From positions 88,824,397 to 88,888,396 of the forward strand of contig CM097887.1 of the NCBI GenBank assembly GCA_044892525.1: a DNA stretch of 64,000 nt. The letters run 5' to 3'. Both the position numbers and the translations under genes were made by a program. Positions 3,601-46,300 of the stretch are shown here, piece by piece; position 1 is the first letter of the stretch, and every line of letters begins with the position of its first letter. The notes beneath the pieces are model-generated. The model searched no databases. It had not been told where the DNA came from and saw only the letters and a list, made by a program, of their open reading frames with translations. This DNA is from Schmidtea polychroa. Its lineage: Eukaryota.

Positions 3601-3674
3601 AAAGTGTTTTAAAGAAAAATGGTGCACGTCTTCAGCTTAAAGAAGAAACTATAGCGAGAAGGCAAATTCAAAGC

Positions 3675-4499: not shown

Positions 4500-4896
4500 T
4501 CATTATTCTAGATACGCGCTTTCGTTCTAATCGTTCATCAATAACCCATGCGTATTACAAACTATCCAGATCCTCAAACTTCAACTTTCTTCCTCCTCCT
4601 TGAAGTCTAAACTTATTTGGATCTGATTGCTGAATTTCACTTTCTAGAGTGATCCATTCTCTCAATGTATGTCTATCAATACCAAATCTTGTAGCAACTT
4701 GCATTTAACTTATACTTGTTTTTATATTTTTTATTTGTCATAAAGGGATATTTAAATTTTAATAATATTAAAACAAAAACATAAAATGGTATAGTTCTGC
4801 AATTTAAGAAATATTTGAACTTTTTAATATTTATTCAAATAACGATAATTCCCGGTGTGGAATTATTTCGGGCGGGGGATTACTTCGAGTTTTAGA
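4500..4896 (-). mobile_element. Degenerate pogo/Tc2-type transposon 5' end with HTH DNA-binding remnant
   Basis: Minus strand reads QVATRFGIDRHTLREWI...FRLQGGGRK followed by frameshifted WVIDERLERKRVSR. Terminus CTCTAAACTCGAAGTAA sits next to a TA. Confidence 0.45.
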
Positions 4897-9330: not shown

Positions 9331-11347
9331 TATATCAAATATGTTTACAGCTCCTTTGCTTGATATATTATCTTCATTTTGTTCATCTATATCGTTGACA
9401 TCTATAAAATATTCCTTCTTTGCGGATTTATCTTCATACTGAATTTCTGTCAAAAACAATAATTTTTAAAATTATATCCTGATTTGATTTTGTAGCACCC
9501 AGCATCAAAATGACACTGATATAAATAAATTTCAGATAATCTTGCTGATGAAAAAATATTATTTAATTAAATTTTAATTACATAGCATTATTACTTAACC
9601 TTTAAAAGACTGATGGGTCAAAAATGACCCAAAGATTGAAATAATAAGTTTAAAACATTTTGGATTTTAAAATTTTCAGCTTATTTTTCATGTCAATATT
9701 TTTGTAAATATATAAATACTTTTGAATACTCACGAGTTTGTTTAAAAAGATCAGCCATTTTAAAATCAACCCAGAAGTGTCTTTTATGTTATAAATTATG
9801 TATAATGTTTTAATTAATCCATATTTCTTATTATATCAAACTTAAGGGTCATGTGTTTCACATTTCTTCAAGAAATTGGACAGCTACCAACCAATTAATA
9901 TTCCCTACATTTATTTTTTAAAAACATCTTATTAAATTCTTGAATAAAATAAGTAATATCTATTACCATATCTCCTATCTCTTTGTTAATATTATGTCGT
10001 TTAATACTTTTACAATTAGAATACTTATTTAAATACTTTATTATCTAAATGAAATTATACTATTCCTATCACTAGTATAATTTTGAAATTTGCTATATTT
10101 GTTATATATTTTGACTGAATAAACTAGTAATTTATAATTTATGACCATCAATGTCATCATTCCGAATAATACTGCATTTTTTAGAAAGAATTATTATTTT
10201 CCCGTTATTTTCTATCCTTTATATCATCCTTTTTGCCTTTAACATTAATTGTTCTACACTATTTGCATTTTTAAATCATTTTATATAATGGAAACTCTTT
10301 TAAAAACACTTTTTCACTTTTTGCAGTAGTACGATGGATTTAAGGAACGTGTAAGACATTTCAATATTGCACTAACATTTCCCATTGTCTGTCAACTATT
10401 CAAATCTTTATTAAAAAGATCCATGTTTTGAAACTTAACATTACGTCTTTTAAATATTTTTTTAATTGTTTCAACCTTTGCAGTAGTAATAAATAAAATA
10501 GTAATAATAATAATAATAATAAAAGGCCTAAATTATAATTTCATAAATTTAAATAATAAATGCTGCTATCAAGNNNNNNNNNNNNNNNNNNNNNNNNNNN
10601 NNNNNNNNNNNNNNNNNNNNNNNNNNNNNNNNNNNNNNNNNNNNNNNNNNNNNNNNNNNNNNNNNNNNNNNNNNNNNNNNNNNNNNNNNNNNNNNNNNNN
10701 NNNNNNNAACTTTAAGATCTATCAATTTCAACAATAAAAATAAATCTTTATAATTTTACGATAATAATTAAATGTTGCAATAATATTAATTTATTTTTAA
10801 ATTTTCTTTCACGTAATTACTCATAAAAAATTCTTTCAAGCCAACACTAATTTATATGATTATATCTTTCTTTTATTCGATTTTAAATTATTCAAAACTA
10901 TCCAAAATATCCAAAAATGTCAAAGAAAATACTTAAAATCTGTCAAAAGATTATTTGTTTATATTTATCTTTTGGTTTCAACTTGGATCTTGTTTTTAAT
11001 TCAATAATTTTTATGTAATAATATTTGTAAGACTATACACCGAAATAATATATAAGGTATTTGTTTAAATATTTGATTTTACGTTTAGTTTTTTAAATTA
11101 AAAAACTTTATGTGGCATAATACTTCTCAAAGACTATCATAGTATTTCTGACTTTAAAATAAGATAAAATTTCATGAGCTCTCACTACTCTTTCACCGAG
11201 TTAATAACGATATTTTTGCAGTTTTTATCAATTGTATCGTGTACCTTACATATATTGTTTTAATAATAATAATAAAAGGCCTAAATTATAATTTCATAAA
11301 TTTAAATAATAAATGCTGCTATCAAGAAATCATCACTTTATACTAAA

Positions 11348-11423
<76 letters not shown>
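11348..11423. repeat. (AAT)n microsatellite
   Basis: Read directly from sequence. Confidence 0.95.
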
Positions 11424-11426
<3 letters not shown>

Positions 11427-21088: not shown

Positions 21089-22573
21089 TATTAAACAATT
21101 AATGTTGTTTTAATATTATGAAAATGTCGTAAAAATAGAATTTGAAAAAGTTTTGTCTTACAGTGAAATTTGGAAAGGGATATTTATTTAAAATCGAACA
21201 TATATCTTCTAACAATAGTCCGTGAAACTGTAAGAATGTTAGCTAATTATAGTTCATTAGAGTGACCTCACTTCATACTAGCATTTAACCATTAGATACA
21301 GTATTAAAGTTGATAAAATAACCTAACATACAATGGTTAACCGTTTTTATTCTGGTTTATACTGAAATCACCACAAAGGATATGGTTAAAGTTTGCCTGT
21401 AACCCATCAAATTTATTATGATTTATTTTTTGTTATTGTAAAATTATAATTTTTTATTATTAGAAGTTTAAATCTTATCTAGTTTTTATTTTCAAAACTA
21501 AAAATCCCGAGAATACATGTTACTGATAATACTTGGCTTCAGTAAACCAATTAGAATTTAAATAATAAATTTTTAAATACAAACACAAATTACTAAAAAC
21601 AGTAATTTAATTTAGTGATAAATTCAAATAAAAGAATTTTACTAATTGTAATGAATTAAAAGCAAAATTTGTTTTAATAAATAAGAGGAAATAGAAAAAT
21701 TACAACTTTGAATTTTATTCGGTATTTCTTACTCATTAATCTAATTATAGTAATAGTAATTTTTAATTGCTTTAATTAGATTAATATCTAATTAGTTTAA
21801 ACAAATAATATATAATTAAATGTTTTAATTGCAAAGTTAGAAAATATGAAAAATTTTGCCAGACAAAATTTGAAATTTTTAATATAAATATTTTAAGTTT
21901 CTTGAAAAACTAAATTCCTTTTTTAATATGGAAACCTTTGAGAGGTTTGATAATTCAAAAGTAATAAAGTCCAATGGAGATCATTAAAATTTGTTCAACA
22001 ACACTGGTTCGCCTGAATATTAGGCAGTTCATATTAATTACTTTAATAAAATTATCAGTTCAAAAAATAAAAAATGATTTCAAATAAATCATATAGTTGT
22101 ATCGCTTGACAAATCCTATCTGATGTTTGATTTTACCCAAGAAACCCCTAACTTAATACTATTTAGTCATTTGGTATTATTTTCATCCATGATATGTAGT
22201 TATTAAGACCCACGCGAAGATTTAAAACGTCATGACCAGGTTACTTTTTAATTTGCCATACATTGTACAAATATAAAGACCTGAGTATTTTCAAAATTCT
22301 GAAATTATTTTTATACTTGAAAACGATAAAATTTAGATAAAAAGTTAATAAAATATCTGACAATCATATGGAAATAAAAGTATCTGTGATCTACAAAGAT
22401 CTAAATTGAACTTAGTGATGAAGATTCTTAATTGAGAATGAAAGTGTAATTGTTACATTATGACTGCTGTAATAAAAATAATTCAAAATATCATCTCGCA
22501 AATATAGTGTAATTTTCAAAAAATAATGGCCAATGCAAGAAAATGAACAACAAAAAATTTAACCTTAACATTT

Positions 22574-23576
22574 TGTTGAGGATGCCTAAATAATAATTCA
22601 TGAAGAAATAAATAAAATTACCTGGGGGAAGATCGCCATGACAAACGGGACGATCTATAGAGACTCAGAAAAGAAAACGGAAGTGAAAATAAATCAAAAA
22701 TGAGAAAGAGAAAGGAAATAAAAGTTATCAAACAGAAAAATAAAATCAAGGTCAGTACTAATTAATTAGTACAAAAAGGAAAAGGAATTTTGAAATCAGG
22801 GAAAAAGGAAAACAACAATATCCTTATCTCGACAGCTTGCTGATGATAATAGAATTGATGGGAGAAGGCGGCCAAACAAGAAAGGAAAAAGGGAAAAAAC
22901 AACCTGACAGCGGTCAGAGATAAAAATGGGATAGTCGGGGAAAGCAGGAGAAGGAAAGTGGGAAAACACTTGATTATCTGGAGTGCCACAAGAGAAGCGA
23001 ACTATATAAGGGAAAACTGGTGAACATGAAATTACAACAAAAGAGAGAGACAAGGTGACGCGAAATTGGAAACGCTCTGGAAGACGAATTGAGATACGAT
23101 TTGAGATACGATTTGAGAAAATAATTATTGAAGAAAATCAGACGTCGGACGAAACGTTGTTGGACAAACGATTGTCAAGATAATTGTAAAGGAAATAATA
23201 GAGGAAAATAATTGGAGAAAAGTTGAAGAGAAAAATTAGTTGAATAATAAAACGAAAAGAAGTTATTGATTATTTGAATAAAGTTTGAAAGAAAGTCAAA
23301 GAAAACAACCAGCTCAAAATCCCAGCTTAGAAACCAATCAGTAATTTGTGATCTTTTAATCCGGTGTTATACACAAGTGCTATTCCTCACCGAGTGTTGC
23401 AATAAGCACTGTATAGTCACCCAACAGAGTGTTGAATTTATCGTCAGTGTCAAGTGAAAGTTTATTTGTGATTATCAATAAAGATTTCTATTGTCAAGTG
23501 TTATTTGTGAATTATATAAAGACACGCTTGGAGTCAGAGTAACATTAAATTTTGTCACCAACTCAATAACCCAACA
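22574..23576 (+). repeat. 5' LTR of large Gypsy element
   Basis: Matches 36401-37403; one substitution seen by eye (G22912 vs T36739). TATA-like TATATAA at 23003-23009; AATAAA at 23477-23482. Confidence 0.95.
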
Positions 23577-23581
23577 TATTT

Positions 23582-23599
23582 TGGTGAGCCCGACGTGAT
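23582..23599 (+). promoter_or_regulatory. Primer binding site complementary to tRNA-Trp 3' end
   Basis: TGGTGAGCCCGACGTGAT, 17/18 identical to TGGTGACCCCGACGTGAT (complement of the vertebrate tRNA-Trp 3' end); 5 nt after the LTR. Confidence 0.85.
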
Positions 23600-23798
23600 C
23601 AAAAGTTGGTGAAGAGATTGTGAAAAAGAAAATTGGAAAAATAAAGTGTGTAAATTGAAATTATTAGAGTGATTTTGGAAAGGTAAATTGTTTATTGTAA
23701 TAATAATTTGAGATTTAGATTTTGTGAAATTTGAAAAGAAATAATTTATTAAAGTGAACCGATATTATTTACGAAGCCAGAGTAAAAAGGAAGCTACA

Positions 23799-26597
23799 AT
23801 GAGCAGTGAAGATTTACCAGTTTCAGTTATTAAAGAAAATAATGATTTTGCCAGTTGTCAAAGATTGCCAGTAGAGCAATATGGAGGAGATCCAATTATT
23901 TTTGTTGATTTTATGAGCGATTACTATATGTATGCAACGGCTTATGGATGGTCTCAAGCAATAATGATTCAAAGATTACCCTTATATCTTAAAGGAGCTG
24001 CTAGAGAGGTTTGGCAACAAATCGACAGGAAAACAATCGGCAATGATTGGGCCAAATTAAAAGATGCATTGGCTGCTAAACTTATTGGAGGAGATATAAA
24101 GAGGTTAATGCGTCAGAAATTTTATAATAGAGTTCAAAATCCAAATGAAACAGTGAGCGAATATGCATATCATTTATCGACCCTTGCCAGCAAATCCTTT
24201 GAAGAAGATTCGAAACAACCAGGATTAGCCCAACAGATGCAGGAACTGATTCAAGATCAATTTTTGTCCGGAGTAAATAAAGAAATAAAAACGGCATTAT
24301 GTTTTGTAGAGTATGACAATTTCGACGAACTAGTTAAAAAAGCAATGAAAATCGAATTGAATCTAAAGAGCTCTAAAAATAAATCTGAGGTATTTGCAAT
24401 AATTCCAGTACAAAGAGAGAGATCAGTAACCTCAACCCAAGACAATTGGGAATCAGGAAATAGATTTCAACGATTAAAGAGCCCATCACCAAAATGGAGA
24501 AACGATAATAATATGAACAGAGCAAGCCAAAATTCACCAGGCACTGAGAGAGCTCAAGTTATTCAGTGTGATATTTGTAAGAAAATTGGCCATTATACAA
24601 ATCAATGTTGGTTTAAAAATAATTCTGAAAGAGTACCCAGGAGATTGAGTCCAGATTGGCAAAGAGATAATGGAGGAACGAATTTTCGGAGAGCAATTCC
24701 TAATGTGAAGTCAAATTTTAATGAAGTACAATGTTATCGCTGTGGTAGAAAAGGACATGTTTCTAGAAATTGTTTTTCAAGATCAAGATCACCATCAATG
24801 TCACCATCACCACAAAGAGATAATGTGAATTTAAATGGACAAATTCAATGTCATTTATGCAGAAATTACGGACATATTGCAAGATCTTGTCCCAGGAATT
24901 CCGATAAATTTCAAAAACCGATTTTGAAACGAACAATTAGATTTCAGGATGAAAACCAATCAAAGAATAATGTTGCTTATGTTCAAAAAGATAAATTTAG
25001 AGAAAAAATTGAGAACGATGTCAAACAATTGAATCAAAAATTGAATAAATTGATGGCGAAATTTGAATCAGATGATGAAACAGATTCTCATATGATGACA
25101 AGACGAAAATTGAAGACGGATCAATCAAAACTTGATGATATTACAAGAAACAGAGTTAAAACGGATATGCAAAGTGAAAAGAGTACAATACTTATTGCTA
25201 AGGTCAGGAAATTAGTAACAGAACCTGATGCGAATTCTCAGAAATTGACAGAAGTATTGATGAAGCTAACGGAAATACCGTTGAGTTTAACCAAAATTAA
25301 AACTGTTATTAAACTTTGTACTGAATGTTTTGCAGCAAGTGTGGAAAAGCGAGATGTATTTGAAAAGTATATGAAAGAATTTGGCCAAACTTTACGAAAA
25401 TTCAAATGGTTAGACCCGATATTTATTAAAACAAATACATTAAACGACACCAAATCCGAGTATCAAGTTGAAGCATACGGAAAAATACGCGAGTTGAAAA
25501 GAGAAATAATGTACAAATGTGAAGTTTGGGCAGTAGAACTTGGATTTATGGGCCGAGTGTTGGAAGACGACGAATTTTTGATAGATTGTGGATTAATCCC
25601 CGGCGTTGAAAATGAGATACAAATAGTGAGCATGATTACCAATGAAAAACCAGTCAAATATGATGTCAATAAAATTAAATTTGAATTAAATGAAGCATTG
25701 ATCAAGGGAGATACAGGTGATATTATTGATAAATTGAATAATATTTTGAATTTAGAATTTGAAGTGGAAGATAAATTGAAAATTTTAGATTGTGTCAGAC
25801 CCTATGTAAATTATGATAATGAATATAGTGAAATGATAAAAAAGCTTATTCATAAATTTGGACAAGAATTTAGAGAAAAAGGAGTTTATAATGAGCCATT
25901 TGTGATAATGTTAAAAATAAATGACCAAGAAGTGGAATGTACCAGCGAGCATTGGTGTACGAAATTGAGTACAATACGACGGAGAGCAGCAGAAATTATG
26001 GGCAGTGATGGAATAATTGTATTGAAATACAAAGGTTTTGAGTTAGATGATGATGAGTACTTATTTGATTGTGGCTGTGTACCACGAAAATTTGATGAAA
26101 ATGGATCTTTGGCGAATCAGGAAACATTTATTAATGAGTTAGTTGCGATGAAACAATTTGAATTAAAGGAGGTAGAAGAAAGCTTTAAAATGGAATTACC
26201 AAACTGGAAAAATGAGATAATGAGTAATGATGATGAGATGCACGATGAACAAGAAATGAAAAGAGATGAAATAGAAAATGAAACTGTAGAGATTATTATT
26301 AAAAATGAGATGAAGACTGAAAAAGATGAAATAGAAAATGAAGCGGAACAGATTATTGTTGAAAATGAAATGAGAACTGAAGTTCAAAATGAGGCATATA
26401 TGACCAAAATGACGATTGATAATGATATTAAAGAAAAACAATGCAGAAATTTGTATGAAATAAGATGTAAAATAATACAGAAATTTCAAGAGGAAAAAGA
26501 TCAGAAAGACTCAAAGGAAACTGAGAAAATTGTACGTGCTCTAGTAAACGAATTAATAGAGAGAATTAATAGAGAGAATAGAGAGAATGCAAGTTGA
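23799..26597 (+). CDS. gag: Gag (capsid plus three CCHC zinc knuckles) with a long C-terminal extension holding two ubiquitin-like domains
   Basis: First ATG at 23799. Capsid motifs (LPLYLKGAAREVW, RVQNPNETVSEY); knuckles CDICKKIGHYTNQC, CYRCGRKGHVSRNC, CHLCRNYGHIARSC; Ubl-like segments at about 25419-25628 and 25899-26150. Confidence 0.85.
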   Translation: MSSEDLPVSVIKENNDFASCQRLPVEQYGGDPIIFVDFMSDYYMYATAYGWSQAIMIQRLPLYLKGAAREVWQQIDRKTIGNDWAKLKDALAAKLIGGDIKRLMRQKFYNRVQNPNETVSEYAYHLSTLASKSFEEDSKQPGLAQQMQELIQDQFLSGVNKEIKTALCFVEYDNFDELVKKAMKIELNLKSSKNKSEVFAIIPVQRERSVTSTQDNWESGNRFQRLKSPSPKWRNDNNMNRASQNSPGTERAQVIQCDICKKIGHYTNQCWFKNNSERVPRRLSPDWQRDNGGTNFRRAIPNVKSNFNEVQCYRCGRKGHVSRNCFSRSRSPSMSPSPQRDNVNLNGQIQCHLCRNYGHIARSCPRNSDKFQKPILKRTIRFQDENQSKNNVAYVQKDKFREKIENDVKQLNQKLNKLMAKFESDDETDSHMMTRRKLKTDQSKLDDITRNRVKTDMQSEKSTILIAKVRKLVTEPDANSQKLTEVLMKLTEIPLSLTKIKTVIKLCTECFAASVEKRDVFEKYMKEFGQTLRKFKWLDPIFIKTNTLNDTKSEYQVEAYGKIRELKREIMYKCEVWAVELGFMGRVLEDDEFLIDCGLIPGVENEIQIVSMITNEKPVKYDVNKIKFELNEALIKGDTGDIIDKLNNILNLEFEVEDKLKILDCVRPYVNYDNEYSEMIKKLIHKFGQEFREKGVYNEPFVIMLKINDQEVECTSEHWCTKLSTIRRRAAEIMGSDGIIVLKYKGFELDDDEYLFDCGCVPRKFDENGSLANQETFINELVAMKQFELKEVEESFKMELPNWKNEIMSNDDEMHDEQEMKRDEIENETVEIIIKNEMKTEKDEIENEAEQIIVENEMRTEVQNEAYMTKMTIDNDIKEKQCRNLYEIRCKIIQKFQEEKDQKDSKETEKIVRALVNELIERINRENRENAS

Positions 26598-29025
26598 GAA
26601 ATATGTGAGGAAAATTGCAAAGAAAATTAAAAAGAGATTTTGTGTAGTGTTAAAACAAGCAAAAGAAAGTATGGAATTTTGCGATGATAATGTGATAACT
26701 GAGATGAGGACAAGGAAAATAGATAGAGATATGGTATTAACAATTATGAGTTATATTTTGTTAGAAATCGGAACCTATGATTGCTCAGAAATGGAAAAAC
26801 ATGAGGAAATAATTAAAATGGCGAGTAAAGTTTTACATAAACATGTTGGCAAATGGATAAAAGAGAATGGAGGTTGGGAAAAGCTGATTAAACAAAAAAT
26901 AAAACCAGTTGTGGAATTGAGAGAAAATTATGAAGGGGTCTTGAAACGAAACACCATGAAATTTCCATTTTTAATGTTTATGATTATGATACTATGTGCA
27001 ATTATAACTCAAACGACGTCTTTAATCGCTTACGACTGTTCTCAAACAAAAATGGGAAAGGTATATTCGATGGTAGATATGACAGAATGTCCAGATGCAC
27101 ATCCACTGAGTCTAACAGTGGAAAAGGATGTAAAATACTATGTATATCAAGAGTCTGGATTTAGACATGCCACGGTAAGAGAGTGTATTGTGAAGAGAAC
27201 AAGTTTTGTATTCTATTGTGGCAAATGGAGTCACACATCATTAATTAAAATGTATGCAATACCAAGGCCAGTTGATGTAAATCCAGAAAATTGCATGGCT
27301 GCATTCCAGACCGGAGAATTGAAAATAAGTCCCGAAATTAAATTGAAGGCTAAATTAAATCATGCAATACGAGAAACGATTATTGAAAAAGGGGTGATAA
27401 AGGCCAATGGTGATTGTGAAGGCGAACCATATAAGATGAATGGGCAAATTATTGACAAAGTTGTTGTGATGGAGGAATATTTAACAGAATTGAGAGAATT
27501 TAAAGGAGCTTTTGACGATGATACAGGCAAATTACAAACCCATCCATTTTGTAATATGAAACAGACCAGTTGTCAAACAGGAGAATCGATTTTGGTATAT
27601 GAAGTAAAGAAAAATTTGTGTAACTTGATACATTTGAAATCAATGAGTTTCAGTGAAATGAGTGGCGAACAATTGAGAAATAGACCGGAAAGTCTGAATG
27701 TGGAAGCAAAGCCGGATATGACAGTTAAAATTACGCGATTGAGAAAGAGAAAAACTCCAGTAGTTCTGATGTCAACTTTATTGGACGATGGGATGAGATT
27801 CATACGAAAACGAGTAGTGGATAAGTGCGGCCAAACGGTGTATGAGACGAATTATAAAGGGATTTATGTGTCCAAGAAAAGAGTCGAGGAAGCTCAAATT
27901 AAAATACATAGTACAGATATTAAATTGACAAATTATTTCAATAACAAAATAGATTATCTATTCCACTACAGCCAAAGCATTGTGGAAAATATTTATCGAG
28001 AAATGATATTAAACGATTGTAAATTAAACAAAGAAATATTACGAAATAGAATAGCGATGGCGGTCACAAATCCGAATTTAGTAGCACCTATGTTAATATC
28101 GGAAAACGGTGTATTTGCAAGGATATTTGGTGAAGCGTTGTATAGCTACAAATGCAATGAAATTTCCGTACAAATTACAAAACACGAACAATGCACAAAT
28201 GAATTACAAGTGAGTGTCAATGGTAAACTCAGATTTATGGAACCAATAACTCGGATATTGTTAGAGGAAGACGTAAAACCAAAGGTTTTAAAATGCAACA
28301 GATTACTCGCACCATTATATTGATTAACGTCAGATTCATGGATATCGTTACCAGATCACAAAGGAGTAAAAACTCCAGAAAAGCTAGAATTAACAAAGCT
28401 TGAGTATTTAATAAATTTCACATCATTGGATAAATTAGCACAAACCGGATTGTATTCTCAAGAAGATGTTGAGGAAGCTAGAATGAATTTGTTATTTCCA
28501 TCGAAAAAGGAACGAGTAATAACTGAAATGATTGATACTATACTACCAGGAGGTGAAGGAAAAGTAAACTATGATTATCTATTAACACCAGATCATTATA
28601 AAAAGGCAACGTATAATACGATGAAAAAGATATGGGGAAAATTTATGTTTTTAGGACAAGCGTGTGCGGGATTGATTGGAATTTATGTTATGATAGTGAT
28701 GACAAAGGTAATAATATCTCAAATATTAACTACACACCAATTATATGTTATATCTGGTTGGTCATGGAAATTGATTATTGGATGCATACCGTTCTTGGCC
28801 AGATTTCTGATTACCAAGCATCAATACAAAGAAATGGGGAAAGTAAAATCACGACTAACTAAAAGAAATATTGATTCAAGTTCGAGCAATGGAAGTGGAT
28901 ATGGGGATGATGATAATGATAAACTAAGAGTACCCCCTATGTATTATTATAAAAATAATAAAACAAAAATAAATGATATAAAGGAAAAATCTAAATCTAT
29001 GAGTTTATTACATACAGTACCATAG
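26587..29025 (+). CDS. env: ORF2: N-terminal Bcl-2-like domain, then a signal sequence and chuvirus-like class III fusion glycoprotein; one in-frame TGA at 28321-28323
   Basis: BH2-like WIKENGGWEKL; hydrophobic MKFPFLMFMIMILCAIITQTTS; LIAYDC..YSMVD..ECP, YCGKWSH, CNRLLAPLY, LAQTGLYS, and C-terminal membrane region WGKFMFLGQACAGLIG...GWSWKLI. The frame stays open after the TGA. Confidence 0.8.
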
Positions 29026-29180
29026 GCAAGTGGAACAGACACTTTCAGTCGATTATGTATTCCAAAAACCTTTATTCCAACAGCACCAATATATCCAGTG
29101 GAAAAACTAAAGGAAATGAGGCCAATTGAGAATATTGAATTAACAAATGAGCAAATTATACCGACAAGTGCAGAAATTGA

Positions 29181-29760
29181 AAGGAGAAATATGCTGGGAT
29201 TACCAGGAAATTATGCGCTAATGACAGTCGGAAACAGAGCAGACAACCAAGAATATGGGTACAAGTAAATAAACATAGAGTTGAAGCATTATTAGACTCA
29301 GGTTCGAGTAATACGATATTATCAGACGAAGTGTTGAATTCAGATGAGAAAGCACAAATGAGAAGTACAGAAGAAGTGGTACGATCAATGACAAAATCCA
29401 AACTAAATATTATTGGGCAAATTAGAGTCAAGTTCAATATTGGAAATCAGGAAATTGCTCATGATGTTCTAATAATTCAAAATTGTCCAGTGGAATGCTT
29501 AGTGGGTATGGATGTTTTAGCACAGCTAGAAGGAGTTTGTCTTGATTTGAAAACGGGAAATTTGATTATGGGAGAAACGGGGAAAGCCATTCATGAAACA
29601 GGCGACGTGTTTCTAAACCAAACATTAAGAGTTCCACCTCAAAGTGAAGTTATTTGTTATGTGAATACAATGGGAGTTCCAGATGATGAATTTATATTTC
29701 AACCAAGTGAAACATTAATCAAAAAGTATGATATCCCCATGTACGACGAACTAGTAAGTC
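29181..29760 (+). CDS. pro: Retropepsin-type aspartic protease region (no ATG upstream of the active site)
   Basis: Frame opens at 29181; PRIWVQVNKHRVEALLDSGSSNTILS and CLVGMDVL motifs. The reading frame shifts to the pol frame near 29760. Confidence 0.85.
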
Positions 29761-32718
29761 CAAGACCAATTAATTCCTGTTTATATTACCAACAATAATG
29801 ATAAAGAAATAGCATTAAGACCAAAAACGAAATTGGGAAAGTTGACAAAAATCTTAAAAATGGACAATAAAAGATTACCAAAAAATATAAAAATATACAA
29901 AGAACCTCAAGTAAACAGTAAAGATTTGACCCAAGAGAAAATACAAAAATTTATGAAATTATTGAAAAAATATCAAGACGTCTTTGCAAAACATGAATAT
30001 GATCTAGGAGTTACTCATGTAATTGAGCACGAAATTCCATTAATGGATGAAACTCTAATCAAACTACGACCATACAGAATTCCTTATGCACATCAAGAGG
30101 AAAGTGATAGACAAATAAAGGCGATGAAGGATTTCAATATCATCAGAGACAGTTTTTCACCATTTTCTTCATCTATTGTTGTTGTTAAGAAAAAAGACGG
30201 TGAAATAAGATTTTGTATCGATTATCGAAAATTGAACCAAGTTACAAGAAAGGATACATATCCAATCCCAGTTCCTCAGGAAATGTTCGACAAAATGGGA
30301 GAAGCTCAATATTTTACTGTTATTGATTTAAATAAAGGGTATAATCAATTCAAAGTTAAAGAATCAGATAAAGGAAAAACAGCATTCTCAGATGGAAAAG
30401 GTTTGTATGAATTTAATGTTTTACCATTTGGTTTGAAAGGTGCACCAGCAACATTTCAAAGAGGAATGAATTTTGTACTGAGAGATATCCCACATGCTTT
30501 AGTGTACATAGATGATATTATAATATTTTCAAGTGATTTTGAGGAGCATATGAGAGATGTGGAGACAGTATTTAAACGGCTTAGAGAAGCAAGTCTCAAA
30601 ATCAAACCATCAAAATGTGAATGGGGTAAGTCAGAGGTAGTATATGTTGGACATATTATCTCACGGAGGGGTTTACAACCAAATCCAGATAATGTTAAGA
30701 AAATCCAAGAATATCCTATTCCAAAAAATGTTGATGACGTCAGACAGTTTCTCGGGTTAGCAAGTTATTATAGAAAATTTATTAGAAACTTTGCACATAT
30801 TGCTCAACCATTAACAATGTTATTAAAGAAAACTCTTAAATTTACGTGGAATAAAGCTCAACAAGATGCTTTCGAAATTCTCAAACAAAAACTTATAATT
30901 AATCCAATATTGCGATGCCCAGATTTTACAAAGATGTTCATATTAATGACAGATGCAAGTGGTTTTGCATTAGGGGCAGTGTTGGGGCAAAAGGTAGAAG
31001 GAGAAAAAGATCATGTCATTGCATATGCTAGCCGATCACTGAAGCCCCATGAGAAAAATTATTCAACAATTGAAAAAGAAACTTTAGCTTTGGTATATGG
31101 GATAACAACATTTCGACAATATCTAGTGGGTCCGAAATTTATTGTTTATACAGATCATAATCCGTTACAATGGTTAATGAAACATCGAGATGCAGCAAGC
31201 AAATTGATAAGGTGGTCTATAGCCTTACAAGAATATGATTTTGAAATAAAATACAGAACAGGAAAATCAAACGCTAACGCAGATGCATTGTCAAGGATCT
31301 CAAATGAGGAAATTAGTGTTGACCAGGAAGAAATAAGTTTGAGAGATACAGTATTCGCAGTAATCAAAGCAGTAAACAATATGTCAGAGCTGCAACGAGA
31401 TCAGGAAATGGATGATGAACTAAAACAAATAATCAAACATACAGTGATAATGAAAAAGGACAGTGAATTAAAACAATTAATTGAGGAAAAGCATAAATAT
31501 GTAATCCACAAAGGTATATTAAAGTATATTAAAGGTGATGAATTATTAATAGCTGTCCCAACTAAGCATCGAAATACGTTATTGTTACAATATCATGATG
31601 GAGCATTGGGTGGACATTTATCAGCAAGAAAAACAATGTCACGATTAAAACTAAAGTATTTTTGGAATACAATGGACCAACATGTAAAGTATTGGTGTAA
31701 TACGTGCAAAATTTGTCTAACTCGAAAGAATACAGGAAAGAAAATAAAAGTCCCACTAAAACCAATGCCAATACCAGCCGCGCCAATGGAATTTTCAGCA
31801 ATGGATATTATCGGGCCCTTACCCGAAACTACAAATGGAAATAAATATATTATAGTATTTTGTGATTATTTAACAAAATGGCCAGAGGCGTACGCAATAC
31901 CAAATCAAAAAGCGGAAACAGTTGCTCAAATATTTGTCGAAAAGATTATATTCAGATATGGTGCTCCAAAGAAATTGTTAACAGATCAAGGAACAAATTT
32001 TCAAAGTGATTTATTTAAATCCATTACCGAATTATTTGGTATTTATAAATTAAATACATCACCATATCACCCGCAAACAGACAGGCTAGTAGAAAGATTT
32101 AATGGTACTTTAATCAATATGATCTCATCGTATGTAAATCGGAAACAAAAAGATTGGGACTTATTTATCAAACCATGTCTGTTTGCTTATCGAAATGCAG
32201 TTAACGAGAGTACGGGTGAAACACCTTTTTATTTAATGTATTTGAGACGAAACAATATGCCAATTGACCTGAAATTTCAACCCCCAACGTCTCAATACAT
32301 GGACGTTCCAAATTATAAAGTAATAATGCAGGAACGATTACAATCTGCATGGACTCGTGCGGGGTTAAAAATTAAGTATCGTCAAGAACAATATAAAGAA
32401 AACTACGACAAAAAGGCGCATGAGCACGGAATAAAAATCGGAGATTCGGTATATTTAAACAGGCCGGAGCCAGTAAAGGGCCTATCAATAAAATTACAAA
32501 GACCATTCAAGGGTCCATACACAGTATGTGATGTTACAGCAACTAATTTGAAGTTACGTCCAATGAATAACAAAAGAGCAGAAACAATTATAGTTCATGC
32601 TAATCGATGTAAGAAAGTATCCGAAATAGAGTATCAATTACGATCAAAACAAAAGAAACTTAATGATGAAAAAATTATTCAAAAAAAATTTCAAAAAAAC
32701 CCTACGCCATTGGGATAT
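29761..32718 (+). CDS. pol: Pol: reverse transcriptase, RNase H, integrase
   Basis: RFCIDYRKLN, LPFGLKGAPATFQR, YIDD (30505-30516), TDASG, YSTIEKE, TDHNPL, HDGALGGH..CNTC, MDIIGP, TDQG, VERFN, GPY motif. The frame continues into the next feature. Confidence 0.95.
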
Positions 32719-33900
32719 ATGAACAGAGTTTTATTTATAACTACAGTCTTAATAAATGTCATAGCAAATGCAAGTGGAATAACAATGAATCTACCATATG
32801 CAGTAGAAAAAGTACCCTTATTGGATAAAATTTATATATATTCAACATTTACTAGTATTGTGTGGACATATCACTGTGAAATATCAGAACAAATAGAAGT
32901 TAGTAATTTATTGAACCCTTTCGAACCATTTGTTACGTTGAATTATGAGAAAAGCATATATGTAGCTCGTCGATTGACAGCAAATTACAAATATCCTTGG
33001 ACCATTAAACAATATACGCATCAAACAAATACTACTCAAAATATTTATAACCTTATACAAATTAACATTTGGACAAATGAATGGAGAAATTTAGCTGAAA
33101 TTGAACCGATGATAAATGAAATTCACGTATATTGAAAAGCGGAAGAGCAACAGAAAGTCAGAATTGTTTTTCAAAACATTACGATTGAAACATTAAATAA
33201 AAGAAAATCTTTTGTTAAATACAAAAATTTACAAGAAAATCTCACTTACAGTCTTTCAATACATTATTACGAGAAACTCATTCATGACAATGGGACGTAT
33301 ATGAATAATCAATGGATAGAAGTTCAGAGTCAATATGAAGCAGTACACTTGGTTAACGAAACTAATCGAGTTCAAATAAAAATTGAGAACAATGAAATAA
33401 TTGTGTTACGCCAACCAGGCCTCAGACAAAGGGTAAATATTTTTGTAAATAATAAAATTCAGGTGGTGTTAGACGAATACCAACAAAGAGCAAAATTGAG
33501 TACCTTGAACTCAGTATCTAATCCGAAACCAAGAAATTTCGTGATCAAAATTCAATATTGCAAGCGAAAAGCAAACTCAGATCAATGGCAAGTCACTTTC
33601 ATTGAAAATAGACATATTCATCTTCCTCATACTCAACCCATTGGAGAAATAATAAGTGATCATAATCTAACATTAACCGTAAAACCCTCATGGTCAAAAA
33701 ACGAAAGCTTTTCACTAAACTGTAAAGAAAAATCATCTCATAACAATTGTGTCGAATTGTTATTCATATGTATCATTGTGGCAATACCAAGCGGTATCCT
33801 ACTCATCTACCTTGTTCTAATCTTGAGAAGTAATGACAATGACAATTCTATCTGCGACTATCAATATTCTGAGTCGCAGCAGTTAGAGACATGGGTGTAG
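32719..33900 (+). CDS. Predicted type I membrane glycoprotein, in frame with integrase; in-frame TGA at 33133-33135
   Basis: Signal-like MNRVLFITTVLINVIANA; at least 7 N-x-S/T sequons; FN3-like stretch IHVY*K...KYKNLQENLTYSLSI; TM LLFICIIVAIPSGILLIYLVLIL; short tail. The frame is open on both sides of the TGA. Confidence 0.65.
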
Positions 33901-34068
33901 TAAGATATGATTTCATTGCATGCTATTGATATCGTAAAGTATTTCTTTCTTTCATACCTTTTATAATTACATAAAAATGACTAATAGTGATCTTGTATTG
34001 TGATTATTCGTGATCTAAAATTAAATTATCATTCCTGTAATTTGATTGGTTAAACGATTGCACTACTG

Positions 34069-35574
34069 ATGGGAGAGTTGGGATATAAGAGTATGGTTGT
34101 TAAAAAGAAGAAAACGAAGAAAAACAAAGAATATCAAATGGAGAAAATCAGCAGACCAGCGAAAATATATTCACAGTATCTCAGAGAAAAAAGAAGCCGA
34201 ATAGAGAAGACATATATAATCGAAGAAAATCTGAGAATCCCAAATTGGGCAAGAACAGGCAATGAGAAAATGAGGATATGTCTAATGGAGATCGAATGGA
34301 GATCAAGAATGAAAATAGCCGAATTATTAGTGAGGAAAAGTGATGAGAATTGGGAGATCCACGTATTTAAAGGAATAGTGGAAATCATTAACAATGAAGG
34401 AACCATAACCGGAACAATGCCAAACAATTCATCATGGAAAATTGATAAAGAAACATGGCATAAACATATGCGAGCGGCGAATGGAACCGCGTGGTTAGTA
34501 TTAGAATGCCGCAGTAAAATGCCCACAAGTAACGCGGTAGAAAGAATCATCTCGATGGAAGAAGAAAATACCTTGCTCCCGATTACTGAAGAAATGTTGA
34601 AACACCGAAAGTCATTCCTGAGAAAATATTTAACCACTGAAGAAATCCAAAAAAATATAATATTCATGGATGCCGAATATGGAGTAAGTGAGGACAATAG
34701 AATGATCCCACTAGCGGTATGCCTCATCGAATATACCGGGAAAATAATCTATAATGCTTTGATAACTCCGAGAGAAAAAATAAAAAACTATGTTACACAG
34801 GTTCACGGCATTACTGAGAAAATGTCTAGGAACCAAGAAGACCAATATGAGAGCCAAAGGAAAGTTCAGGAACTAACAGCACGAAAAATATTGGTAGGAC
34901 ATGATCTACAAAATGAATTAAGGTATAGTGGAGTTAACCCAAATGATTTATGGGAAATTCGGGATCTAGCAGCAGCCCAAGCTCTAACGAAAAGGAAAAT
35001 CACAAAGAATGGGCAATGGTACAAATTGTCGATAATTGCTCAAGAAATATGCCAAATATCAATGCAAAAGGGAACGCACTCGGCAAGAGAAGATACGGAT
35101 GCAGTGAGACGAGTTTATCTGGCATTGGAAAGCGATTGGGAAGATGATATAAAAGTGCCAACACGGATATCTCACTCCCTACAAGAGTATAGAACTCGCC
35201 AACTAATGATGAATCAAAAAAGGGAATATAGTAAACTCAAAATCCCGAAAAAACCACAAGAGGAAAAAGCTGTGGAAATGCAAGAGATGGAAATAAATCT
35301 TCATTCCATCGAATCAATGAAAACCATCAAGAGATATAAAGTAACGATAACAATGGAAGAGGAATTAAAAATGGCGGGGAAAATGGAGCTTCGTATAAAG
35401 AGAATGGCAAAACGAAGACTCAAAGATATGGAAACTCAAACGGTAACTACGGAAACTTCGGTGGGAAATACAATTATCATCAACGGAGAAGAATGGAAGC
35501 TCAAAAAAATCTTAGCCACTTATCAAAGAGAAGATGAAAAGATAAAAATTACAAAGTTACCCGACAGAAGATGA
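34069..35574 (+). CDS. DEDDh 3'-5' exonuclease (REX4/ISG20-like) with an unknown N-terminal domain
   Basis: Exo I IFMDAEY (D at 34669), VTQVHGIT, Exo II ILVGHDLQNEL, IRDLA, Exo III QKGTHSAREDTDAVRRVY; Lys-rich N-terminus KKKKTKKNK. Intact 501-codon ORF. Confidence 0.85.
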   Translation: MGELGYKSMVVKKKKTKKNKEYQMEKISRPAKIYSQYLREKRSRIEKTYIIEENLRIPNWARTGNEKMRICLMEIEWRSRMKIAELLVRKSDENWEIHVFKGIVEIINNEGTITGTMPNNSSWKIDKETWHKHMRAANGTAWLVLECRSKMPTSNAVERIISMEEENTLLPITEEMLKHRKSFLRKYLTTEEIQKNIIFMDAEYGVSEDNRMIPLAVCLIEYTGKIIYNALITPREKIKNYVTQVHGITEKMSRNQEDQYESQRKVQELTARKILVGHDLQNELRYSGVNPNDLWEIRDLAAAQALTKRKITKNGQWYKLSIIAQEICQISMQKGTHSAREDTDAVRRVYLALESDWEDDIKVPTRISHSLQEYRTRQLMMNQKREYSKLKIPKKPQEEKAVEMQEMEINLHSIESMKTIKRYKVTITMEEELKMAGKMELRIKRMAKRRLKDMETQTVTTETSVGNTIIINGEEWKLKKILATYQREDEKIKITKLPDRR

Positions 35575-36386
35575 ATAATTGTAATAAATAAATAAAATTT
35601 ATAATTCGTAATTACTTTATTTTTTTTGTACCATAAAAATCTTTTATCAAATAAATAATAGAATAATAAAATAGCAAAGGCAAAAAAAAAAAAATTAATT
35701 AAATCATAAATATAAGTTGAAAATTTAATAATATAATATAGTAGAGTGTAATAAAAATTTCAATACTAATACAATTGTAGTAAGAACCCTACGGGAGCTA
35801 CTCAAATAAATAAAAATGAATAAATAAATATATATAATTCGGAATTAATAAAAAGGCCTTGAAGTTTCCAGATCACGAACTTCGGGATCTGAAGACTTCA
35901 TGGCAAAATTACCTAGCCGCCTGCAGCATGGCGTAACCAGCGTGCAAGGTAATTTGGAAAAGACAAGATAAATAATAAACCCTATATAGAGAGGAAGAGG
36001 CATTATTACATAATTATTATTTCAATTAATTATTATTATTGTCATTATTGATTAATTATTATTGTTATCANNNNNNNNNNNNNNNNNNNNNNNNNNNNNN
36101 NNNNNNNNNNNNNNNNNNNNNNNNNNNNNNNNNNNNNNNNNNNNNNNNNNNNNNNNNNNNNNNNNNNNNNNNNNNNNNNNNNNNNNNNNNNNNNNNNNNN
36201 NNNNNNNNNNNNATAGAGGATATTGATATGTATTAAAGTAACAGGGGGATTAATGTAATGCGCAATAAAATCAAACAACTATGGGAAGGGATAATTATTC
36301 TATTTTGGGGATTTTAAAATGAAAGAGGTAGCTAACAAAATAAATAGATTTCAAATCTTAATTTATTTCGAGGACGAAATTTTTTT

Positions 36387-36398
36387 AAAGGGGGGAGA
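36387..36398 (+). promoter_or_regulatory. Polypurine tract
   Basis: AAAGGGGGGAGA, 2 nt before the 3' LTR. Confidence 0.85.
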
Positions 36399-36400
36399 TA

Positions 36401-37403
36401 TGTTGAGGATGCCTAAATAATAATTCATGAAGAAATAAATAAAATTACCTGGGGGAAGATCGCCATGACAAACGGGACGATCTATAGAGACTCAGAAAAG
36501 AAAACGGAAGTGAAAATAAATCAAAAATGAGAAAGAGAAAGGAAATAAAAGTTATCAAACAGAAAAATAAAATCAAGGTCAGTACTAATTAATTAGTACA
36601 AAAAGGAAAAGGAATTTTGAAATCAGGGAAAAAGGAAAACAACAATATCCTTATCTCGACAGCTTGCTGATGATAATAGAATTGATGGGAGAAGGCGGCC
36701 AAACAAGAAAGGAAAAAGGGAAAAAACAACCTGACAGCTGTCAGAGATAAAAATGGGATAGTCGGGGAAAGCAGGAGAAGGAAAGTGGGAAAACACTTGA
36801 TTATCTGGAGTGCCACAAGAGAAGCGAACTATATAAGGGAAAACTGGTGAACATGAAATTACAACAAAAGAGAGAGACAAGGTGACGCGAAATTGGAAAC
36901 GCTCTGGAAGACGAATTGAGATACGATTTGAGATACGATTTGAGAAAATAATTATTGAAGAAAATCAGACGTCGGACGAAACGTTGTTGGACAAACGATT
37001 GTCAAGATAATTGTAAAGGAAATAATAGAGGAAAATAATTGGAGAAAAGTTGAAGAGAAAAATTAGTTGAATAATAAAACGAAAAGAAGTTATTGATTAT
37101 TTGAATAAAGTTTGAAAGAAAGTCAAAGAAAACAACCAGCTCAAAATCCCAGCTTAGAAACCAATCAGTAATTTGTGATCTTTTAATCCGGTGTTATACA
37201 CAAGTGCTATTCCTCACCGAGTGTTGCAATAAGCACTGTATAGTCACCCAACAGAGTGTTGAATTTATCGTCAGTGTCAAGTGAAAGTTTATTTGTGATT
37301 ATCAATAAAGATTTCTATTGTCAAGTGTTATTTGTGAATTATATAAAGACACGCTTGGAGTCAGAGTAACATTAAATTTTGTCACCAACTCAATAACCCA
37401 ACA
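36401..37403 (+). repeat. 3' LTR of large Gypsy element
   Basis: Copy of 22574-23576, followed by the ATTT TSD. Confidence 0.95.
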
Positions 37404-38808
37404 ATTTTATTAAATTAATATAATTTTTAAGGTATTATTCTTGCCAATACTAATGGGATTTTTCTTTTTAGTTTAAAATAAATAAAAATATTTTTCTTCA
37501 AACTTTTGCCAATTCAAATAAAGTCTAGAAATTATTTATTCTCAATATTCAATTTCTATTGGATAACAGATAATTATGCTAAATTTGATTTGATTTCATT
37601 AAAAATTGAGTATTTGAAAAATGATGATAACATAAATCTCTACAACTATACAAACTTACATTCATTGTGTATAAATTGTGTTCCAGAACAATTGAAAATT
37701 CCGTAAATGTATATGCATCTGTCATAGTAAAAGACATCGTATTTTTGGTGAGTCTTGTAAAGATTAAACATTTTAATTCCAATTTTAAATTTTCATTTGT
37801 GCATATATGTTCAAAATACATCGAATTGATGACAAAATATCCATGAAAATATTTACTGTTTTAAATTTTTAAAATAAACTATGAAAAAAATCAATAAATG
37901 AATTTATACCTGATTGATTGAAACGTAATGCCAAATGTAACAATATAAATAAAATGAGATTAAATAAATTGTGCTGAAATTATTTTTTTTATTTTCCACA
38001 ATTAACTTGAGCACATTTAATTAATCACAAAATTGAATAAAATTTTGATTTTCAATATGTGGATTAATTTTTTATAATTTTTATTTTTTCTTAAAGTTTA
38101 TATCAATTAAATAAAACCATTAATGGCGAACAATTAAAATTAAAAGTGAAACAATCATATTTAAGCTGTTTTGTTGAGTTATTGAATAAATTCGTCGGGA
38201 AACCACTTGAATATGACTCCACATTGTCCTTTATATTAAAACAACAAGACCCAACAAAAATAAGTTTTATTTTCAATACTGAAATCGAAAAGATTATATA
38301 GGTTTGTCATATTAGTTTGGGTTAAAATCAGGTGTTCCCGAAGAAAACAACCTCAAACTATTTAATTCTACGAATCTTATCAACACGAATTTCGAATTCG
38401 AATTCTATAATTGTTTTGACAAAATTTAATAATGTTTGTCATTGTAAAATTTGCCTAACCCTATATAAGACCAAACTGACATTCATCAATCCGATTTCAA
38501 ACTATATATAGTGATCTATATTTTGTTTCATATTTTACTCTTGTTTTCCATTCGAAATTATTAATGTCGTCATTAAGACTTAAATTGATTAGTTTATATT
38601 TTTCTAATAATTCTGCTTTGGGACCCCGTCGATTCATAATAATCACATTCGTATTGAACTTTTTTTTAATTTTTATTTAATTTTACATATCTCTATCGAA
38701 TTTTAATTACAGCGTATAGGCCGAGTAATTTCGGATTAATTTTTAATTTTATGTTAAATTGTTATGGTTCTTAGTTAATTTCATAATTTGAAATAAATTA
38801 TATATTAC

Positions 38809-43354: not shown

Positions 43355-46300
43355 GGTGGCCCAAAAAATTGAAAGTTAAAAACTAACAACTCTCACCCTT
43401 CCAAGTTGTTCCAATTGCTATAAAAATAATTAGTGCAAAATATTTCTGCAATTTGACAATATTTAAAGGTGGCCCACTGGTGATGAAGTTTTGACATGGT
43501 GTTTCTTTTGCCGGTAATTCAGGGCGAGTTATTGGTTTGTTATATAGCAGTGACTGAGAGAGTATGGATGATTAACCTATTTAAGTGTTACTTATTTATT
43601 GGTATTTTATTGAATTTATTAGACATTCTTTGCTAATTCTCTTCTGTTTATGTTTATATTTGTTTTTCATTTTTGAGACAAAAAGTCAGCTATTACTCAC
43701 CAGTCGAGATGTAATTATGCAATCTTTGTTCTCTTCATGTATTAATAGTCAGTATTTTACTTTGCTGAATTACATGCAAAAACACATCGTTGTTGAATGC
43801 ATTTTACAATGTTACATGTACTCTTGTACTATACAGCAAATTTAAAATTTTTCAGTTGTTCATTCAATTATGCCTAGTGTTTTGCTTAACCTAATCGTCT
43901 CCACTCTCCATGTTATTGTGTTTCAGATTTAACAGAATGGAAACAAGATCTAATGATAATGTTTACTTGATTAAATCATATGTTCCTGAAATTCTTGGTG
44001 CAAAGCTGCCATCGTATTATCAGACATTTGGGTACTTTCTACACCTACATAAAGTAGAAAAAATGACTCTTCGCGAAGCCAGTAAACTGACAATCAACGT
44101 GATAATGGAGTTCTGGAAAAAAGCAAGCATTCCAACAAGAGCAGAACAGCACTGCATTCAGAAGCTTGAATCAGTCTTTTATGAATGGAAGGGTCTCCAA
44201 AAACACAAGTCGAGGTCTGGTGAAACTCACAAAAAACAGGAGCATGAATTTGTTTCTCATCTTGAAGATTTGTTCGACATAGCCCATCAGGATGCACTAA
44301 CTATCATTAGCAACCCAGAAGACAGGGCATTCCTGTTACGCCAGAGAGAAAAAGGGCGTCCAGGATCCATTGGTGTCCGGGATAAAGTTACTGAACGTAA
44401 AGCTAGAGCAGCTGGTGAACGCAAACAAGCTGAAGCAAGGCGGCGGCAAAGGTCAGTAGATGAAATGAATATCAGTGCTTGTTTGACAACTCTCGAATCA
44501 TCATCTGGTGAAGACAGTGACCATGACCAAGAGCAGATTGTCTTGTGTGATGATGAATATAAACCTGTTGCATCCTCATCAACAGATCCTGCTGACTGTA
44601 TCACAAAGCCAGTGCCAAAGAAAGCTAAGACTGATGTATTGACTCCTGGGGTAATGACAGCTCTGGACAGAACACAGACATCCTCCAGAAATGCTGTTTA
44701 TGTGTTGTGTGAAACAGCATCCAGCCTTGGTCACAATGTTGATTCCCTCAACATCAGCAGGAACTCAATCCACCGAGCCAGGTGTAAAGCTAGAACAATT
44801 GCAGCATCACAGCTGAAATCAGAATTTCTATCTGTAAACCATCTGACTGTCCACTGGGATGGAAAGTTATTGGAAGATTTGACAACTAGAGAACACGTCG
44901 ACAGGTTACCAATTCTCATCTCAAGTGTTGGTTGTGAACAGCTGCTTGCAGTTCCAAAACTGTCATCTGGAACTGGTGAATCCCAAGCTACTGCCGTGGT
45001 CAACGAGATAAAGCAACGGGCATCGAAAAGCAGGTTGTGACTTTGTGTTTTGACACAACAAGTTCAAACACTGGTGATAAGCAAGGTGCTTGTGTCTTAA
45101 TTCAACAGATGTTGGCCAAAGATCTCCTATACTTGGCCTGTCGTCATCACATCATGGAACTTATTGTCGGTGCAGCATTTGACCAAATGCTACGAGGTTC
45201 ATCAAGCCCTGACATATCAATATTCAAAAGATTCAAGGAGCACTGGAAATTCATAGATCGTGACAACTACCAGCCGGCAGAAACGGATCCATTCATCGAC
45301 AATCTCATTGCTAATAGTCGAAATGAATTATTGGAATTTGCTCGCATGCAACTTGAAGTGCAGCAGCCACGAGATGATTACCGGGAGTTCCTGGAACTGT
45401 CTATGATTTACCTTGGCCAGGCTCCTTCCAGGGGGATTCACTTTCAGTCTCCAGGTGCAATGCATCGATCAAGGTGGTTGGCTAAAGTGCTGTACAGTAT
45501 CAAGATGTGGCTTTTCAGAGCACAATTCAAGATGACACAGAGTGAGCTGAAGGGAATCACTGCTGTTGCTGCATTTGGTGTGCTTGTCTATCTCAGAGTA
45601 TGGATAACAGCACCTCTGGCAATAAATGCACCATTGAATGATTTCCTGTTGATGAGACAGCTCCTTGAATACCCCGATGTAAACATTTCATCTGTAACCA
45701 GCAAAAAGCTGGGACTGCATCTGTGGTATATTTTAGAAGAGCTGGTAACACTCGCTCTGTTTGACTCCAGAGTTCCAGCTGAAACCAAGAAGCTGATGCT
45801 TGCAGCCATGGAGAATGCTGCACCTGAGCATCCACCTAAACGTCCCAGAGTGGAAACATCAGCCTTCACAAACAGCAAGGGTCTCGAACAGTTCTGCACA
45901 GCCAATTCAATGACCATGTTTCGTCTTCTGCAGTTACAGACGTCATTTATGTCAAAAGATCCATCAGAATGGGATGAGGATGAAACATACCCATGTGCAC
46001 TGAGAACTGTTAAAGGATTGGCTGTTGTGAATGACAGAGCTGAGAGAGGGGTAGCCCTCATTCAGGACTACAATAAAAAGCTAACCAAGGATGAGGAACA
46101 GCTTCAATTCATGTTGCATGTCGTTAGCGAACATCGCCGGCTGTTTCCAGACTGCAGCAAATTCGGTCTCATGATGGCCATGTCATCTAAGCCAACGACA
46201 CCTTAACTATCAAACTCGGACTGATCTTAATTAGTAGTTACGACTAAAAACTGTGTTCAATCACCATGTTTTCAATTTCCATGTTCCATGCACTGTTGTT

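Follow-up and report, generated by a model that had tools for sequence, protein, structure and literature searches.

The planarian retroelement Burro is longer than 30 kb and encodes a single polyprotein of 4,873 residues, in which, according to the part of PMC6431247 available to us, Gag, CCHC zinc knuckles, a Ubi2/SUMO-like domain, BCL2, an in-frame env located between gag and pol, protease (PR), reverse transcriptase (RT), RNase H (RH), and integrase (IN) are combined; the same source already proposes Burro-like elements as proviruses meddling with apoptosis and ubiquitination. Flatworm Ty3/gypsy elements of the herpes simplex virus glycoprotein B (HSV/gB) type with the order GAG-ENV-POL have been catalogued, including Smed_errantivirus_1 and Smed_errantivirus_2 (Chary and Hayashi, PMC13524379). 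In the Juno and Vesta long terminal repeat (LTR) elements of bdelloid rotifers, the third open reading frame (ORF3) after pol encodes a DEDDy exonuclease, the motif of which has changed to DEED; it was gained and lost between lineages, and other lineages possess transmembrane (TM) ORF3s (PMC5408684, accessible part). The Drosophila protein Sas, consisting of three fibronectin type III (FN3) repeats, one TM segment, and a short tail, acts in vesicles as a targeting ligand for Gag-derived dArc1 capsids (10.1101/2022.09.06.506798, accessible part). The element analyzed here, 14.8 kb in length, occupies positions 22574..37403 of a 64,000-nucleotide stretch of Schmidtea polychroa contig CM097887.1, referred to as the window; all positions follow window numbering. 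Judged by its sequence, its core architecture is a known one, and it is a member of the gB-type GAG-ENV-POL clade that resembles a compact Burro.

Downstream of the integrase, the polyprotein continues into a predicted single-pass membrane protein with three FN3 folds and a C-terminal PDZ-type motif, the motif being kept in all five element families seen (A to E, the window copy belonging to family A). The window element is a defective copy of a Burro-like GAG-ENV(gB)-POL Ty3/Gypsy element, the lineage of which likely spreads as an enveloped particle carrying a predicted class III fusogen together with a predicted FN3 membrane protein, likely for attachment or targeting. On balance, we lean towards this reading.

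An earlier note on this DNA, made from the sequence alone, knew of no described family with such a combination. This did not hold, as the Burro core order (PMC6431247) and the gB-type GAG-ENV-POL clade (PMC13524379) are both in print in the portions consulted. With Burro, the window family shares the single Gag-Ubl-BCL2-env-PR-RT polyprotein (Ubl, ubiquitin-like domain). It differs in size, having about 3,370 codons, and in content: MATH, BIR, ankyrin, and dUTPase domains of Burro have no Pfam match in the window element, which offers no room for most of them (the PR-RT stretch was not folded), while an FN3 membrane protein and an exonuclease ORF are absent from the Burro description as far as covered by the accessible part of PMC6431247. 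Burro itself was not recovered in the genome, where the top Bcl-2 matches were family E, probable host genes, and Polinton-like elements. Smed_errantivirus_1 and Smed_errantivirus_2 belong to the same clade and have the same gene order; 119/156 (76%) and 113/156 (72%) gB residues, respectively, are identical to the window copy by hand count, and family D is, by eye, about 98% identical to Smed_errantivirus_2, which puts the host at or close to Schmidtea mediterranea. The window family is a sister of, and not among, the six Smed_errantivirus elements listed in the accessible part of PMC13524379. The main text of that paper, figures not included, makes no mention of exonuclease, Bcl, ubiquitin, Burro, fibronectin, or accessory, and neither a primer tRNA nor an LTR is given for these elements. 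A literature search, outside of which lay Repbase, Dfam, subscription papers, and figures, any of which may describe the FN3 part or ORF2, returned no FN3 membrane protein encoded by a retroelement. As far as found, three features are apparently not in print: the FN3 surface protein, whose PDZ-type tail is conserved; the DEEDh exonuclease, which is swapped between subfamilies; and a derivative devoid of pol and fusogen.

The FN3 assignment rests on folding, because no Pfam match, including fn3, was obtained in the post-integrase part and a sequence search of the Protein Data Bank (PDB) gave nothing below E 0.4. The model of this part (predicted local distance difference test, pLDDT, 72; 11 alignment rows) consists of three beta-sandwiches, for which Foldseek returned fibronectin Fn7-8 and Fn10-12 at 1.6e-9, followed by PTPRD, CD45, and Tie2. 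The FN3 fold comparison (VIA) yielded Z 9.9 over two domains and Z 8.8 for one domain, with a root-mean-square deviation (rmsd) of 3.0 over 83 residues. Language-model neighbours were all fn3 proteins with scores < 0.9, which is a lead only, and only generic FN3 proteins were matched in a viral fold library. Seven N-glycosylation sequons lie within the post-integrase part; a hydrophobic segment is found ahead of it and a strong membrane helix behind it. The second membrane glycoprotein of the earlier note is the end of the polyprotein, with predicted FN3 folds, and not a separate gene. In family E, this end appears to be built from a single FN3-like motif and a Thr-rich stalk, followed by a TM helix and the terminus STLV/SSLV (L047:1153-2298, L052:1358-2497), and one Ubl-like unit is found upstream in its polyprotein.

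The C-terminal tails of families A to E read ETWV, ETFV, ETWV, ETRL, and STLV/SSLV. A C-terminus of the form S/T-x-V/L is the class I PDZ-binding pattern. In a control set, which includes element tails, 33 of 590 long frames have such an end. A profile search against 1.84 billion representatives produced four distant homologues of the post-integrase part at 21-25% identity, ending in TQV, TLV, SVM, and, in one case, as a fragment; the PDZ-type pattern is thus present in two of the three that possess a tail. One of these homologues has its own signal peptide, another starts in an integrase-like tail. Longer fused homologues were not encountered among 4457 candidates of 701-2000 residues, which constitutes weak evidence.

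The second surface component would be the class III glycoprotein already named in the earlier note, which was borne out by two matches to PF24664 (4e-54 and 7e-28). As in gB-type errantiviruses, env is located between gag and pol, is of class III type by Pfam, and is flanked by a signal and a TM segment according to hydropathy. It is among the most conserved parts of the polyprotein (70-75% identity between families, synonymous sites being saturated), and signal and anchor are kept. As a separate observation, gB is joined in frame to the exonuclease domain in a deleted family-C copy (L034, minus strand, frame 3537-5996).

By hydropathy, the polyprotein has four hydrophobic segments: a signal and an anchor, followed by a second signal and a second anchor. 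Threaded accordingly through the membrane, Gag-Ubl-Bcl-2 would be cytosolic, gB luminal, PR-RT-RH-IN cytosolic, the FN3 part luminal, and the PDZ-type tail again cytosolic. Signal peptidase and the element protease would release the parts; until cleavage, Pol would remain tethered to the gB anchor, so that the enzymes would be sorted together with the envelope. Through its tail, the FN3 protein would contact PDZ scaffolds of the host, by which budding or uptake would be steered; roles proposed for the Bcl-2 fold, the Ubls, and the exonuclease are the damping of host responses or the trimming of RNA ends. Besides the fusogen, budding particles would bear another surface protein, and it would be the latter that chooses the target cell, as Sas does for dArc1 capsids. 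Retroviruses and errantiviruses are known to enter cells by means of one env gene; if the proposal is true, an additional surface protein with the fold of host receptors, encoded by the element itself at the end of Pol, would give a retroelement a new means of selecting the cells it enters, and retroelement spread would be tied to vesicle targeting of the Sas/Arc type. The likeness to Sas, three FN3 domains and one TM segment acting with a Gag-derived capsid, would be a functional analogy only, drawn from architecture and not from homology; Sas is a host gene, and its tail carries a tyrosine motif instead of a PDZ-type end (10.1101/2022.09.06.506798, accessible part). For the long-standing provirus guess on Burro-like elements (PMC6431247, accessible part), the window family, compact and multi-copy in a stem-cell model animal, now offers parts that can be put to the test.

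Several findings weigh against spread as a particle with two surface proteins. The topology is derived from hydropathy, in which the second signal reaches a score of just 1.8-1.9 and is missed in family C. Identity to solved FN3 domains is 8-21%, and FN3 is a very common fold that says nothing on function. Five derivative loci (described below) have the terminus YCMLLT, in which the PDZ-type motif is lacking; in another two it reads ETWA. None of eight other family-A copies examined is unbroken throughout. ORF2, which encodes the exonuclease, is absent in family D and has lost catalytic residues in family E, so that the exonuclease is optional. A more far-reaching version of the proposal combines a two-protein entry machine (class III fusogen and FN3 attachment protein with PDZ-binding tail) derived from one four-pass polyprotein with a swappable immune-evasion exonuclease and cargo-keeping satellites, making up an infectious flatworm retrovirus with a herpes- or paramyxovirus-like surface; taken as a whole, this is tentative and rather unlikely.

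A purely intracellular life has to be weighed with regard to a non-autonomous derivative. Of 41 cargo match rows, 23 end about 20 codons into mature gB. Fourteen such loci were retrieved; in 13 of them that point is joined to the FN3-TM part, 11 times in frame. The derivative (13 loci, L057-L069; also L044) is about 8-9 kb long and lacks the gB ectodomain, PR, RT, and IN, the junction leading from window position 27078 to ~33017-33036, by which the gB signal peptide comes to head the FN3 part. This arrangement fits both ectodomains being on the same side of the membrane. The gag-Ubl-Bcl-2 region of the derivative is about 94% identical to the window copy. Its FN3 part is shortened and has 41-53% amino-acid identity, for which reason the derivative represents an old lineage or a recombinant and not a fresh deletion; its ORF2 is whole, partial, or absent. 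In two DNA-type runs, contig depth over gag-Bcl-2 is 3-5 times that over gB-pol, which is not a copy number.

Retention of the cargo without the fusogen fits intracellular retrotransposition, in which gB would be retained but non-infectious, while FN3 (as decoy receptor or adhesion mimic), Bcl-2, Ubls, and the exonuclease would serve survival or immune evasion of the expressing cell. This alternative has real weight, if less than an even claim. Fusogen and Pol have been dropped from the abundant derivative, in which Gag-Ubl-Bcl-2 and a portion of the FN3 protein remain, as reflected both in the rows ending at its junction and in contig depth; in addition, cytokine and phosphatase receptors are found among the FN3 matches. 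On the other hand, the high conservation of gB, with signal and anchor, fits a working fusogen, and derivatives can borrow gB in trans. If the extra parts act only inside the cell, the result would be useful as an annotation, the clade itself having been catalogued before.

Whichever mode of spread applies, the element is a real, coherent, multi-copy Ty3/Gypsy retroelement. It possesses the features of the Metaviridae, namely LTRs with TG...CA ends, a 4-bp target site duplication (TSD), a tRNA primer site, a polypurine tract, and the order PR-RT-RH-IN. The 1003-bp LTRs and the ATTT TSD reported in the earlier note were both found, with a single mismatch between the two LTRs; among 11 other copies inspected, a 4-bp TSD is present in all four for which both ends were located. 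A tRNA-Trp(CCA) gene of this genome provides, at its 3′ end, the 18-nt match to the primer site, and families A-D share the same site. A first search pattern for the primer site gave eight loci, none with a tRNA, while a second one located the tRNA-Trp genes. These tRNA-Trp(CCA) genes, which supply the primer tRNA of the elements, form a tandem array with a 284-bp period at L072 (near 55.02 Mb), with 821 pattern matches genome-wide. At least 42 genome matches were obtained for the LTR (40 of 3608 candidates were scored), at least 41 for the cargo stretch, and at least 50 for the 3′ stretch.

That the interior was misassembled, or that it consists of separate insertions nested in one another, a doubt raised in the earlier note, is extremely improbable. 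The stretch of Ns near the 3′ end would agree with it, as would six frame breaks between nearly identical LTRs, but colinear copies exist on several chromosomes (one on another chromosome with 96.7% identity over 13.5 kb), four other families share the order, and all 30 bins of the element are covered in two DNA-type runs (contigs). The N stretch (36071-36212) corresponds to non-coding TAT-repeat DNA in a sister copy of about 16.4 kb, and the left flank-LTR junction is free of differences in an independent sequencing run. The extra ORFs are not peculiar to this locus: the cargo is present in other family-A copies and in four further families, ORF2 being absent in D and degenerate in E.

The family design, Gag-(helical+Ubl)x2-Bcl-2-gB-PR-RT-RH-IN-FN3x3-TM in one frame and a separate ORF2 thereafter, revises the earlier picture: every domain listed in the note is present and in the given order (by Pfam, the weak ones by fold), but what were taken for separate ORFs are one polyprotein broken six times in the window copy, plus ORF2. 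Between gag and the post-integrase end, there are three frameshifts (near 26597, 29268, and 29798) and three stops (28321-28323, 29023-29025, and 33133-33135), so that intact gag, env, and pol frames are not found in this copy. Each break is bridged by an open frame in at least six of the eight other family-A copies. Frames of at least 3,400 codons occur in 18 of 122 match rows, with further ones of 3,334 and ~3,050 codons; unbroken frames exist in sister families. The same order is found in families B, C, and D and in the distant family E, with RT-RH identities to the window of 87, 84, 85, and 52-53%, respectively. Because one LTR mismatch stands against six coding breaks, which is more than post-insertion decay would give, the window copy probably arose in trans, its template having been broken before. 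Alternatively, single breaks could be assembly errors, by which the layout is not affected.

Table 1. Features of the Schmidtea polychroa element in window coordinates.
Feature	Position	Strand	Basis and remarks
Left TSD, ATTT	22570..22573	+	sequence
5′ LTR, 1003 bp, TG...CA ends	22574..23576	+	LTR comparison, genome matches
Primer-binding site, 18 nt complementary to tRNA-Trp(CCA) 3′ end plus CCA	23582..23599	+	
Gag capsid and CCHC zinc knuckles, polyprotein start	23799..24920	+	Pfam PF03732 2e-8, PF00098 9e-8
Two tandem units of small helical domain and integral Ubl (predicted)	25230..26165	+	Ubl1 ~25413-25640, Ubl2 ~25899-26165; sister-copy model
Bcl-2-fold domain (predicted)	26490..26900	+	Pfam and fold; cut by frameshift near 26597
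Class III (gB/chuvirus-type) fusion glycoprotein	26971..28950	+	PF24664 4e-54 and 7e-28; stop 28321-28323
gB internal signal	26971-27027	+	hydropathy
gB membrane helix	28660-28716	+	hydropathy
Aspartic protease	29181..29560	+	PF00077 8e-9; frameshift near 29268 inside; stop 29023-29025 upstream; frameshift near 29798
RT, RNase H, integrase	30100..32650	+	PF00078 3e-33, PF17917 5e-39, PF17921 1e-17, PF00665 7e-11
Predicted surface protein, polyprotein end	32728..33900	+	structure model, hydropathy; stop 33133-33135; C-terminal tail ETWV
Internal signal of surface protein	32728-32784	+	hydropathy
Three predicted FN3 domains	~32816-33085, 33089-33352, 33353-33628	+	structure model
Membrane helix of surface protein	33766-33822	+	hydropathy
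ORF2, open in window copy, 506 codons stop to stop	34054..35574	+	N-terminal domain, exonuclease, variable tail
ISG20/REX4-like exonuclease domain, D-E-E-H-D	~34654-35160	+	RNase_T Pfam 3e-5
Polypurine tract	36387..36398	+	before 3′ LTR
3′ LTR, 1003 bp	36401..37403	+	
Right TSD, ATTT	37404..37407	+	

The Ubl and Bcl-2 domains gave Pfam values below cut-off in the window copy (ubiquitin 5e-4, Bcl-2 1e-3), the other matches, from gag and the CCHC knuckles to RNase_T, being above it; Bcl-2 reached 8e-6 in family C. The fold check suggested in the earlier note was made on a sister-copy model (pLDDT 67, six-row alignment), from which two Ubl folds and one Bcl-2 fold were recovered. Ubl1 compares with ubiquitin folds at Z 12.0 and rmsd 1.2, Ubl2 at Z 10.4 and rmsd 1.7. 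The predicted Bcl-2 domain (model residues 430-564) is closest to Bfl-1 (Z 11.1, rmsd 3.5, 132 aligned residues), followed by A179L and Hydra Bcl-2-4 at Z 10.5; over the four Bcl-2 structures compared, Z was 10.4-11.1 for 120-132 residues, and such values below ~13 are modest for helical folds, the BH2 sequence match being in agreement. The BH2-like motif W-x5-GGW is present, while the BH1 motif NWGR is absent from all six aligned Bcl-2 rows. NWGR is the BH1 motif of the BH3-binding groove in anti-apoptotic Bcl-2 proteins. Likewise, neither Ubl ends in Gly-Gly in the alignment; being integral to the polyprotein and devoid of that end, the Ubls would not be conjugated. The Bcl-2-like and two Ubl folds of the earlier note are therefore confirmed on the sister-copy model, while the attributes anti-apoptotic, for lack of NWGR, and ubiquitin mimic, for lack of Gly-Gly, are not established. 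No database homologue of the Ubl-Bcl-2 region was found among 7997 scored candidates. Bcl-2 is also found in a Polinton-like element of this genome, where a 152-codon ORF (Pfam 1e-7, above cut-off) lies beside a protein-primed DNA polymerase B and an endonuclease VII in several places (L053:5261-5716, L054:1-2814).

ORF2 is closest to ISG20L2 (E 8e-15), ISG20, and REX4, and is likely, by its sequence, an RNA-trimming enzyme. The five catalytic positions (ExoI D-x-E, ExoII, and ExoIII H-x4-D) are kept in six of six aligned ORF2s. The DEDDh exonuclease of the earlier note is thus of the right type, its RNase_T match included, except that ExoII is Glu instead of Asp. Between subfamilies A and A' (L003/L004, L006, L007), ORF2 has been swapped: its synonymous divergence is 0.64-0.81 versus ~0.07 for the polyprotein, and the central part of the LTR is different as well. 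Juno and Vesta resemble the window element in carrying an exonuclease as an extra ORF after pol; theirs, however, is RNase D-like, of DEDDy type, and replaces env, whereas ORF2 is found alongside env (PMC5408684, accessible part). Relatives of ORF2 that have lost catalytic residues, apparent pseudo-exonucleases, are found in family E and a lone copy (L047:2156-4489, L052:2355-3959, and L042:6410-8185 on the minus strand).

All cargo is under purifying selection. Between the window copy and one sister copy, the ratio of nonsynonymous to synonymous substitution rates (dN/dS) is 0.35 for the Ubl region, 0.19 for Bcl-2, 0.13 for gB, 0.36 for the FN3 part, and 0.16 and 0.15 for two parts of ORF2, the counts being small; between families, synonymous sites are saturated and the frames still open. 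This bears on the view that the element captured the FN3 part and ORF2 from the host as functionless fragments, which is largely refuted by the dN/dS and saturation analysis and which we regard as improbable. It could draw on the loss or degeneration of ORF2 in families D and E and in a lone relative, and on the shortened second FN3 domain of the derivative. Against it stand the frames that have stayed open across families in spite of saturation, dN/dS values of 0.15-0.36 for these parts, the five catalytic positions in all aligned ORF2s, and the retention of signal, anchor, and tail motif down to ~21-25% identity.

Outside of the element, the window contains a duplicated unit of ~750 bp around an N stretch (10484-11751) and a 2-kb segment (44001-46000) with 44% GC in a background of 27% GC.

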